A DNA stretch of 35,466 nt from a virus. Lineage: Duplodnaviria; Heunggongvirae; Uroviricota; Caudoviricetes. The notes below the pieces were generated by a model. That model had not been told where the DNA came from. It saw only the letters and a list, made by a program, of their open reading frames with translations, and did not search any database. Positions 24,744 through 27,229 of this stretch are shown here, in pieces. The first letter of the stretch is position 1, and each line of letters starts with the position of its first letter. Location: IMG/VR virus record IMGVR_UViG_2711768053_000015; one strand, given 5' to 3'. Both the position numbers and the translations under genes were made by a program.

Positions 24744-25186
24744 GTTGCATGAGCTCTGGTGGGAGCTTACATATCTATGGCACAGAGTAAAGCCTAATCT
24801 GACAGTCCGCTCTGTGCCAGGAGCGGACGTTGGATTAACTTTTAATTTCTCAGGCCAAAAGCTAAAGCCTTTTTATTAGTGATAATAGGTGAATCTTTCT
24901 ACAATCTGCTTTTCAATTAACTGGAGGGCTATCAGCGTTTAAACTCCACAAAGGCTATCACCTCAAGCCCTAGGTTAGCACCGCATGTGGGGCTGATTGC
25001 TCGTTGATGTCATAGACGACCCGAATTTAAAGCGTAATGCGCTGTTAAACATAATCATGTATGGTTTGGTTAATCATCCCTAATGGTTCTGGTTTCTTGT
25101 AGCCCTATCAAAAAAATGGGGTTGTATATGTTTTCATCGATGCTACCATTACGAGGGATAATTTAATAAAAGGAGTTATTTTCCAG

Positions 25187-26101
25187 ATGGTTAGTACAAA
25201 ACAGCAAAGGGTAGATCTAAATAATAATTGGCCTACAAAGTCATTATTTCCAGCCGAAAAGTCTCTAATTGATAAAATGGCTAAATTTGGCATTGAGCAA
25301 GTTTTCCAACCGGCGAAATTACAATACTCAAAAGACCAAAATTTTCATGATATGCTTAGTCATTATTTAGAGGCTCTAGATCAACTACCCTTGAGACCAG
25401 ATATTGCTTTTGATTGTATTTGGAAGGCATTAGATGCGGAGTTTGTTCGACTTAAGAAAGAGAATGGAAGCAAAGAAGGTAGATTTAGTCTTTTCTATAA
25501 ACACATAAGCAAAAGCACATATACTTGTAACTCATATTCACAGTTAACAGAAGTAATACCATTACAAACATGTGAATTTGTGGCAAAGAGAATATTAGAA
25601 AATAACATTTCATATAAAGCTAGCCCGAGAAACAACGACTTCCAAAGTTTTAGGAAGAGAATAATCCAAAGTTTCGGTCAAAGTCTTTATAACGTCTTTA
25701 TTGATAAATACGAGACATTGTGGGCATCCAATAAAGCTAACACACAACGTGATGCGGGACTTTTGATCCAAAAGTTGCTAAAGGGGAAGAAATTATTAAT
25801 TGAAACAATCGAGTTTCAACTTTCGGATCAAGATAGGGCTCTTTTTTTGACGGCAGTAACCATGCCTCAGTTCAGAAATGAGCGATTTCATGGTCTAACG
25901 ACACCTCCTTTTAGATCAAGCGCTGCCACATTAAAGACCTATTCTCATGCTTATTTTGTATTCCATGTGGCATATATTCACCTTTTAGAGGTATTCCTTT
26001 ATAGGCAATTTAATACTATTGACATCAAGACTGCAACCCAATCAATTAATGACAACTTAAATTTGTTCTTAACAGTGTTTAAAAGTGAAATAAATAAATA
26101 A
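25187..26101 (+). CDS. Hypothetical 304-aa cargo protein at the Z/fun position; contains an RNERFHG (Rx4H) motif
   Basis: ORF track; AAAGGAG RBS at 25169..25175; AT-rich; no homology recognised by eye. Confidence 0.6.
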   Translation: MVSTKQQRVDLNNNWPTKSLFPAEKSLIDKMAKFGIEQVFQPAKLQYSKDQNFHDMLSHYLEALDQLPLRPDIAFDCIWKALDAEFVRLKKENGSKEGRFSLFYKHISKSTYTCNSYSQLTEVIPLQTCEFVAKRILENNISYKASPRNNDFQSFRKRIIQSFGQSLYNVFIDKYETLWASNKANTQRDAGLLIQKLLKGKKLLIETIEFQLSDQDRALFLTAVTMPQFRNERFHGLTTPPFRSSAATLKTYSHAYFVFHVAYIHLLEVFLYRQFNTIDIKTATQSINDNLNLFLTVFKSEINK

Positions 26102-26105
26102 ATAA

Positions 26106-26125
26106 AGCCCCTAATCGCGGGGGCT
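26106..26125. terminator. Hairpin AGCCCC-(8 nt)-GGGGCT between the convergent cargo-2 genes, candidate bidirectional terminator
   Basis: Stem 26106..26111 pairs with 26120..26125, directly after the stop of the 304-aa gene; T-rich on the minus strand, TTT on the plus strand. Confidence 0.5.
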
Positions 26126-26249
26126 TTCAGCATTATTAAAATTTATTCAAAATTGGATATCATCTGCGAAATTGATCGATAGCTCATTACTCAGCGCAAG
26201 GGATCCCTACTGCGCTTCGTCAGAATATACAGTTAACACCAGAAATTAG

Positions 26250-26825
26250 CTAGAGATTATTAATCAAGGTGTTCAAACATTTTGCCATGCCTAGTTTATT
26301 CATTATGTGATAATAGCATTTTTTTATTCTTACATAATCTTCAGGAGAAAATTTCATAATTACAGAAGGTAGATTAATAGACTCTACATACTCACGCTGC
26401 TTTTCATTCCATTGGCCATGAACGTAAGCATTTCTTATGTATTTACAGGCAAGGAAATCATCAAAGCACTCTCTTTCAGGAGAAAAACCTCTTATTTCAA
26501 ATGCTTTAAATAATCTATCAATCCTTTCTGTATTTGAACCTTCTTCAAAATAAGAGGCTATGTCAGCCATTGCGTAGTTTGACTTAGTCCATACTTTAAT
26601 CATCATCTCTATACTTCCCACCATCATAACTACCCAAAGCCGACAGAAAGAAGAGTATTTTATACTGTCTGGAACCAATCCTTCGGACGAATGCTCATTG
26701 ACTAATTTCTCTATCATTTCTAGATATATTTGGTCATCAGAATATGCATCTATAAATTCGTTAGTCAAAATAAACTCCTGTTCATAAAGTAGGCTAATTA
26801 CTACATCATCACGAATCTTCGTCAA
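26250..26825 (-). CDS. Hypothetical 191-aa cargo protein; contains an RNAYVHG (Rx4H, HEPN-like) motif; start codon uncertain
   Basis: ORF track; first in-frame start is a TTG at 26825 with only a weak RBS; next ATG is at codon 37; AT-rich. Confidence 0.5.
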   Translation of the reverse strand: MTKIRDDVVISLLYEQEFILTNEFIDAYSDDQIYLEMIEKLVNEHSSEGLVPDSIKYSSFCRLWVVMMVGSIEMMIKVWTKSNYAMADIASYFEEGSNTERIDRLFKAFEIRGFSPERECFDDFLACKYIRNAYVHGQWNEKQREYVESINLPSVIMKFSPEDYVRIKKCYYHIMNKLGMAKCLNTLINNL

Positions 26826-27088
26826 GTTGCGATTCAGAATCGTTTCCGTAGTTCTTACTAGACTACGTCAGAATAGAATATAAATGAATAATTTCTCGTT
26901 CTTAATTCTTGCTTAAGCAATTGCGCAGTCACGTCAGTCAGTTAACTTCGATTTTAGCAGGGATAGCCACGGCTTTCGTAGCCATTTTTCATCGTAGGTA
27001 GATCAGTATTAACTTCCGCTCCTCGCTCAAAGCAGACTGTCAGATTTGATAACTTTTGGGCTATGTAAATTGTCAGTCGGAAAATGAG

Positions 27089-27130
27089 TGTGTACAAATC
27101 AGGACAGGCGGGCGAATTGCCCGCCTTTTC
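27089..27130 (+). promoter_or_regulatory. TGT-N12-ACA dyad (27089..27106, candidate Ogr late-activator site for the FI operon) abutting a GC hairpin plus T-tract (27107..27130)
   Basis: Dyad read directly; hairpin GGCGGGC-gaatt-GCCCGCC followed by TTTT; about 100-140 bp upstream of FI. Confidence 0.3.
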
Positions 27131-27229
27131 TTTATCTGTTGTTTCATCCACTGACCAGACAGGTCAAATAGCGTCTCAGGCACTGCCCAATAGAAAATAG
27201 TTGCACCCATTAACCACGGAGTTAAACGG

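Follow-up and report, generated by a model that had tools for sequence, protein, structure and literature searches.

Two predicted HEPN-family proteins encoded by an exchangeable cassette at the Z/fun hotspot of a P2-like prophage

Introduction

HEPN domains are recognized by a conserved Rx4-6H motif in which a polar residue (N, D, or H) follows the arginine (Anantharaman et al. 2013, PMC3710099). Of the 21 systems that Vassallo et al. discovered, six were reported to have remote similarity to HEPN domains and seven reside in P2-like prophages, in which the fun locus is a second defense-enriched hotspot (Vassallo et al. 2022, PMC9519451). About one-fifth of P2-like prophages reportedly have only unknown genes at their defense loci, and the recombination behind the swapping of defense genes at P2 hotspots is still to be elucidated (bioRxiv 10.64898/2026.02.27.708500). 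Here we describe the cargo at the Z/fun position of a P2-like prophage contained in a 35,466-nucleotide stretch of viral DNA (IMG/VR record IMGVR_UViG_2711768053_000015, Caudoviricetes; this whole stretch is referred to as the window). The cargo consists of two convergent open reading frames (ORFs), ORF-A and ORF-B, whose protein products each look like members of different, unclassified families of the HEPN superfamily, as judged from sequence motifs and structural models.

The reading that we favor, with moderate confidence, is that ORF-A and ORF-B are independent single-gene modules from different HEPN families, encoding predicted metal-independent ribonucleases (RNases) that most likely act in phage exclusion or abortive infection. 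The hotspot itself was already known; what is new is a pair of predicted HEPN families absent from the reference libraries and a well-resolved case of cassette exchange. Should either gene confer protection against phages, a new HEPN family would be added to the single-gene defense systems. Neither family is recognized by Pfam or PADLOC v2, and therefore both would be missed by annotation relying on those libraries.

Like P2 fun(Z) and the PD systems, the cargo described here is AT-rich, lies between gpG and FI, has its own signals, and is swapped between otherwise near-identical prophages. It differs from this known Z/fun cargo in having no match at E ≤ 1 in PADLOC v2, which we take to include the models for PD-T4, PD-T7, and PD-Lambda. 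As single-protein HEPN exclusion systems we considered AbiV, AbiD/AbiF (Abi_2), AbiJ, AbiU2, and the PrrC/RloC-type nucleases. Unlike these, ORF-A and ORF-B lack a match to a Pfam HEPN or Abi profile, and ORF-A has a very large helical insertion along with an N-terminal extension (304 amino acids, as compared with a core of ~120). AbiF/Abi_2 systems have an upstream structured RNA, whereas neither a Pfam Abi_2 match nor an abiF-type RNA (Rfam, positions 24600–27350) was found here. HEPN-MNT toxins (Shewanella SO_3166, PDB 5yep; 7ae2; 8xdj) share only 7–9% sequence identity with the two proteins, and the cassette, unlike type VII HEPN-MNT systems, contains no MNT antitoxin ORF. Among the genes called at the loci of homologues, none has a recorded match to a Pfam nucleotidyltransferase family.

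HEPN features of the two proteins

ORF-A and ORF-B are real genes rather than chance ORFs, because each has more than 100 homologues, invariant motifs, and a confident AlphaFold model. The models are all-helical in both cases (ORF-A, predicted local distance difference test score (pLDDT) 90, predicted template modeling score (pTM) 0.89; ORF-B, pLDDT 96, pTM 0.90). Each protein has an Rx4-6H motif with a polar residue directly after the arginine, and in the alignments R-N-x3-H is the best-conserved feature of each family. The predicted active site is composed of this motif and an upstream E-x3-K.

In ORF-A, the sequence RNERFHG (R230–G236) is invariant across 37 aligned sequences, with identities down to 24%. 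The motif closes the helix formed by residues 214–234, and a large insert is made by residues 150–210 (AlphaFold, with helices in both proteins numbered from the secondary structure). The conserved E130 and the remainder of E130-x3-K134, followed by the invariant R135, lie within the helix spanning residues 126–145. In ORF-B, KYIRNAYVHG is conserved to at least 90% in 35 sequences, and among 126 relatives with identities down to ~20%, R112, N113, and H117 belong to the only six near-invariant positions. The ORF-B motif closes the helix of residues 99–117, with helices 65–92 forming an insert, and the helix of residues 34–60 contains the invariant E54 and, separated from it by three residues, K58 (E54-x3-K58), which is conserved to at least 90%. 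Both models are structurally similar to solved HEPN domains, and their best structural matches include HEPN toxins from toxin-antitoxin systems.

It might be supposed that the R-x4-H arose fortuitously in both proteins, which would then be helical bundles that serve in binding or in a structural role and have no catalytic activity. We regard this as very unlikely. The motif is the most conserved feature in both families and has the typical asparagine behind the arginine, its location at the end of a long helix matches that in HEPN domains, and it is accompanied by the conserved E-x3-K in an earlier helix.

Pfam scans carried out member by member on both families and on the 126 distant ORF-B relatives yielded HEPN-related matches for ORF-B relatives only, and these were below threshold. 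HEPN_RiboL-PSP, DUF4145, and DUF3644 (best E values of 0.0029, 0.023, and 0.0007, respectively), which we count as HEPN-related, were the only recurrent Pfam matches of these relatives, all of them below the gathering thresholds; the ORF-B protein of the window itself matched none of the three. An hhalign comparison detected no relationship between ORF-A and ORF-B.

Occurrence of the two genes, together and apart

More than 35 loci that hold a homologue of ORF-A or ORF-B were surveyed (cited below by L numbers where needed). The genes are apart in more than 30 of these loci, which represent about 22 independent contexts: at least 10 contexts have only ORF-A, and at least 12 have only ORF-B. 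The two are together only in Escherichia coli EC21, Yersinia enterocolitica (L005), and Huaxiibacter chinensis (L102). The Yersinia copy (5620–7859) is 95.5% identical in DNA sequence over window positions 24816–27050, and the Huaxiibacter copy (4716–6960) is 98.7% identical over 24805–27053; being nearly identical, the three copies count as a single evolutionary event. Conserved co-occurrence of ORF-A and ORF-B across divergent genomes was not found.

The Yersinia and Huaxiibacter copies are located outside any P2 prophage. The Yersinia cassette adjoins an insertion sequence (rve) and TrbL/TrfA genes, and the surroundings of the Huaxiibacter cassette include a DUF5677 gene, an ORF with an RNRVVH motif, and a large HEAT-repeat gene. 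DUF5677 proteins are encoded beside an ORF-A homologue (L012, 9174–10088, minus strand) and beside the cassette (L102, 1625–2395, plus strand), in two unrelated elements.

Solitary ORF-A homologues are found in varied settings. In Pantoea, ORF-A lies directly downstream of a ShosA/ShosT pair (ShosTA) and near Bro-N and pRha genes, and in Duganella it stands beside an integrase, a ScoMcrA_N-HNH protein, and DUF4145. ORF-A is also alone in Xanthomonas and in six IMG/VR phage contigs. In another P2-like phage (L021, 6001–6915; L022), it separates gpV from gpS and runs antisense to the late genes, and the G-FI junction is empty. At L019/L020 and L023/L024, it is located between ddrB-ParB and ssb in DNA resembling plasmid leading regions or P1; its neighbors there are ArdA, YubE, DarA_N, LydB, and a resolvase-family recombinase, and ORF-A is antisense to them. 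The homologues at these last three pairs of loci are 67–75% identical to ORF-A and solitary.

ORF-B is alone in Aeromonas, Psychrobacter, one phage contig (L025), and seven further genomes. In Cedecea, it belongs to an island with CcdAB, helix-turn-helix genes, and AbiH, and in Stenotrophomonas, to an integrase island with BrxR. A conserved partner gene for ORF-B was sought and rejected, as the neighbors in Psychrobacter, Aeromonas, Cedecea, Stenotrophomonas, and L025 are mutually unrelated. Nor are these neighbors related to ORF-A or the C-terminal extension of longer ORF-B-type proteins (see below).

The DNA homology with Pantoea covers positions 24832–26135, that is, the leader, ORF-A, and the hairpin that follows it, and stops short of ORF-B. 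The separate occurrence of the genes, their unrelated neighbors, and the end point of the Pantoea module indicate two independent single-gene modules that share a cassette by chance.

ORF-A and ORF-B could instead constitute one two-gene system, either a heteromeric HEPN RNase or a toxin restrained by its antitoxin, an arrangement that we consider improbable. Three genera have retained the pair in a single cassette bounded by hairpins, and a terminator is common to both genes; as noted, though, the three near-identical copies amount to one event, and the Pantoea module ends between that terminator hairpin and ORF-B. The convergent orientation means that the genes do not form one operon. HEPN active sites are generally composite, which is a point in favor of a joint system, as is the finding that an unrelated ORF with an RNxxxH motif stands beside an ORF-B homologue in 3 of 13 independent contexts (against a background of ~2.4% of ORFs, post-hoc P ~0.025). 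These three are ORF-A here, a 172-amino acid ORF in Aeromonas, and a 353-amino acid ORF in Stenotrophomonas. Pairing in trans of a minimal ORF-B-type HEPN protein with an unrelated adjacent HEPN protein, here ORF-A, would yield a heteromeric RNase, comparable to the two HEPN domains of Cas13 but split over two genes; we assign this only a small probability. Weighing against a joint system of either type are the frequent solitary occurrence of each gene and the lack of homology of ORF-B neighbors to each other or to ORF-A. The RNxxxH neighbors could reflect clustering of HEPN genes in defense islands or functional pairing; that these ORFs have RNxxxH motifs of their own suggests clustering of HEPN-like genes.

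Unannotated ORFs adjoining ORF-B homologues have the motifs RNTCAH (L004, 5386–5904), RNSMIH (L028, 5730–6791), and RNRVVH (L102, 3544–4647).

Predicted function

We infer a defense function for the independent modules from their HEPN features and genomic context, and RNase activity, dimerization, a trigger, and an anti-phage phenotype are likewise predictions for ORF-A and ORF-B. In the proposed mechanism, both proteins would be made in the lysogen from the prophage, under their own signals. Each would probably be homodimeric when active, and would be held inactive until triggered by an infecting phage. The triggered protein would then cut RNA (tRNA, rRNA, or mRNA) and so block the invading phage. 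The ~180 extra residues of ORF-A, made up of N-terminal helices and the insert at 150–210, are a candidate sensor or regulatory region, within which R8, W15, R70-P71-D72, F75, and W79 are invariant.

Several observations count against this proposal. No antitoxin or regulator is evident, and tolerance of a constitutive RNase is hard to explain. In sequence-profile searches of Pfam, NCBIfam, and PDB sequences, no established HEPN family was matched significantly by either protein; the PDB search gave no match for ORF-A and only chance-level matches for ORF-B (E ≥ 0.3). A PADLOC check, which the sequence-only reading of this DNA had put forward, drew a blank for both proteins (PADLOC-DB v2.0.0, no match at E ≤ 1). 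Foldseek against BFVD gave zero matches for ORF-A. Lastly, some ORF-A homologues are located in plasmid regions known for anti-defense genes.

This last point bears on the idea that the proteins are addiction or stabilization toxins or selfish cargo with no anti-phage role, or are RNases with an anti-defense or regulatory function on behalf of the mobile element itself. The presence of HEPN toxins of toxin-antitoxin systems among the best structural matches is in keeping with it, as are the position of ORF-A homologues, which are close to ArdA and flanked by ddrB-ParB and ssb in DNA resembling plasmid leading regions, and the mobility of the cassette itself. However, the cassette has neither an MNT or other antitoxin gene nor a conserved small ORF, and no abiF-type or other RNA motif was found by Rfam. 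Moreover, ORF-A is antisense to the plasmid and P2 late operons, as would be an inserted moron, and neighboring genes are mostly defense genes (ShosTA, AbiH, BrxR, and HNH). On balance, we hold an addiction, selfish, or anti-defense role to be unlikely.

Anatomy of the cassette

Conserved hairpin repeats enclose the island, a discrete accessory cassette of 2.25 kb (~24796–27046) that occupies the Z/fun hotspot in a P2-like prophage (Table 1). The 2486-base segment from gpG to FI is 100% identical to E. coli EC21 (NZ_CP060899.1, 1690754–1693239), where RefSeq records two "hypothetical proteins" flanked by a "tail fiber assembly protein" and a "phage tail sheath protein". The fractional G+C content is 0.33–0.36 across 25001–27000, as compared with 0.53–0.60 in the flanking late genes, confirming the AT-rich insert that the sequence-only reading had noted between gpG and FI, both of which are now identified by Pfam matches. 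That reading had also described a 304-amino acid plus-strand ORF, which is present, and had proposed that the two ORFs converge on a shared hairpin, which holds.

Table 1. Coordinates of the cassette and its flanks in the window, with the basis for each feature
Feature	Position	Strand	Basis
gpG, tail fiber assembly (left backbone flank)	24216–24743	+	Pfam Caudo_TAP, E 1.9e-33; RefSeq "tail fiber assembly protein"
Left 36-nt inverted-repeat arm, strong hairpin; border of backbone and cargo	24796–24831		86% complementary to 27011–27046 (repeat search)
ORF-A leader, 355 nt, non-coding, candidate promoter or 5' region	24832–25186	+	travels with ORF-A
ORF-A, 304 amino acids, HEPN-like, R230-N231-E-R-F-H235 and E130-x3-K134	25187–26101	+	homologues, alignment, model
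Terminator-like hairpin, bidirectional, common to both convergent genes; part of ORF-A module	26103–26126		fold; Pantoea homology
ORF-B, 172 amino acids, minimal HEPN-like, R112-N113-A-Y-V-H117 and E54-x3-K58	26250–26768	−	homologues, RefSeq, model
ORF-B upstream region; promoter-like site at 26905–26877	26769–27010	−	consensus match only
Right inverted-repeat arm; hairpin degenerate here, intact in Huaxiibacter copy	27011–27046		repeat search, fold
Strong terminator-like hairpin, conserved P2 backbone, before FI	27106–27126	+	−20.1 kcal/mol, z −4.05
FI, tail sheath (right backbone flank)	27230–28420	+	Pfam Phage_sheath_1 (E 2.2e-33), Phage_sheath_1C, Gp18_domIII_N; RefSeq

The shared hairpin has the sequence AAAGCCCC-N-GGGGCTTT and begins 2 nucleotides past the stop codon of ORF-A and 123 nucleotides past that of ORF-B. 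Its folding energy is −14.3 kcal/mol (z −2.8) on the plus strand and −13.7 kcal/mol (z −1.9) on the minus strand, and its T-rich tail is on the minus side. The backbone hairpin before FI probably insulates the F operon against transcription from the cargo.

The ORF-A leader is 92% identical in Yersinia and ~67% identical in Pantoea, where it carries indels, which indicates that it is non-coding and contains no conserved small ORF. It is not conserved at more distant ORF-A loci, at which the upstream gaps are only 74–250 nucleotides. For the region upstream of ORF-B, conservation is limited to the cassettes of Yersinia and Huaxiibacter. A search of positions 24600–27350 with Rfam (E ≤ 5) returned only chance-level matches to small nucleolar RNAs and small RNAs and no motif in the leader. 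An RNA antitoxin or riboswitch in the 355-nucleotide leader is unsupported, given the blank Rfam result, the conservation in close relatives only, and the indels. A small-protein antitoxin is likewise unsupported, with no conserved small ORF in the cassette.

Exchange of the cassette at a conserved hairpin

Between gpG and FI, the flanks are conserved and the content varies among P2-like prophages, as expected of the Z/fun hotspot. The same short flanks enclose other cargo (HNH endonuclease, SIR2, Shedu, and DUF6615) in 1381 of 5426 complete E. coli genomes, which, together with the published description of the fun locus (PMC9519451), bears out the earlier suggestion of a variable or defense hotspot at this site. 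The present cargo was found in only one of the 5426.

Both 36-nucleotide arms contain the hairpin stem GTCCGCT/AGCGGAC, and the left arm folds with −25.9 kcal/mol (z −5.25). In the Z-region record of P2-EC58 (AJ512683.1), the arms are annotated as "left/right inverted repeat". In alignments across the boundaries, identity switches from P2 backbone (P2-EC58) to cargo (Huaxiibacter and Yersinia) inside the hairpins. Judged by these alignments, recombination with the P2 backbone took place within the hairpin repeats. With near-identical copies in three genera and break-points inside conserved hairpins, the cassette provides a clean example of cargo exchange. In Huaxiibacter, back-to-back arms are found on both sides of the cassette (L102, 4692–4753 and ~6939–7000).

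In IMG/VR, 72 stretches contain the arm motif. Among stretches with both gpG and FI, an arm is located ~58 nucleotides past gpG in 36 of 37, and a second arm ~190–215 nucleotides before FI in 30; the distance from arm to arm at G-FI ranges from 0.94 to 5.9 kb. The motif is also present in divergent phages, in which the adjacent structural genes are only 29–50% identical, at other hotspots (after gpD, and between the gpA-like and portal genes), and in stretches without any P2 homologue. This distribution is consistent with recombination at a conserved site, which Nilsson et al. reportedly proposed in 2004 for the P2 Z region. The hairpin repeat may be the site of cassette exchange, and one possibility is that the arms are sites of a dedicated exchange mechanism that moves cargo among P2 hotspots, other phages, and chromosomes.

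Arms stand back-to-back between adjacent cassettes, and the arm motif was also noted at L012 (6566–6590, 7698–7759, and 11673–11697) and at IMG/VR loci L030–L101.

Gene calls, homologues, and rarity

ORF-A starts at an ATG behind AAAGGAG. On the minus strand, the 191-amino acid ORF that the sequence-only reading had reported does exist (26250–26825, from a TTG), although the gene itself is probably shorter. Homologues of ORF-B are 170–178 amino acids long and begin at the residue encoded by the TTG at 26768, which has AGGAG 6 nucleotides upstream and is the start of the 172-amino acid protein called by RefSeq; on these grounds, ORF-B is most likely 172 amino acids in length rather than 191.

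Among 5.8 billion proteins, a single-sequence search with ORF-A retrieved 99 homologues, and a profile search 132. Their hosts include Enterobacterales, Burkholderiales, Xanthomonadales, Aliarcobacter, Priestia, and Clostridium, among others, and no homologue is annotated or contains a Pfam domain. For ORF-B, there are 124 close homologues, and an exhaustive profile search gave 190 clusters at 50% identity; these, too, are unannotated. The two genes are thus orphans, as they had been called, only in having no annotation in any library, since each belongs to a conserved family. The earlier view that neither resembles a phage structural protein agrees with Pfam and PHROGs, which contain no such match; PHROGs had nothing significant of any kind for either protein.

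Both families are rare in deposited mobile elements. By tblastn, neither was found in 50,697 deposited phage genomes, and both are almost absent from PLSDB plasmids. A scan of IMG/VR identified six relatives of ORF-A and none of ORF-B. The RefSeq accessions of the two proteins were not mentioned in the literature searched.

An ORF-B-type HEPN domain is also located at the N-terminus of many proteins of 400–450 amino acids (P0248–P0388). Their C-terminal extension of ~250 amino acids is conserved, matches nothing in Pfam, and shows no relationship to ORF-A.

Other features of the prophage

A second block of low G+C content (0.34–0.44) occurs in the same prophage at 6001–10000 and is presumably the other cargo island; it is not bounded by the hairpin-arm motif. 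The tail fiber gene H (22083–24212) encodes about five tandem copies of a ~44-amino acid unit, at roughly 22.5–23.3 kb, which in translation reads …TAQDATTARKGLVQLSSATNS.SETLAATPKAVK.AYDLANGKY….

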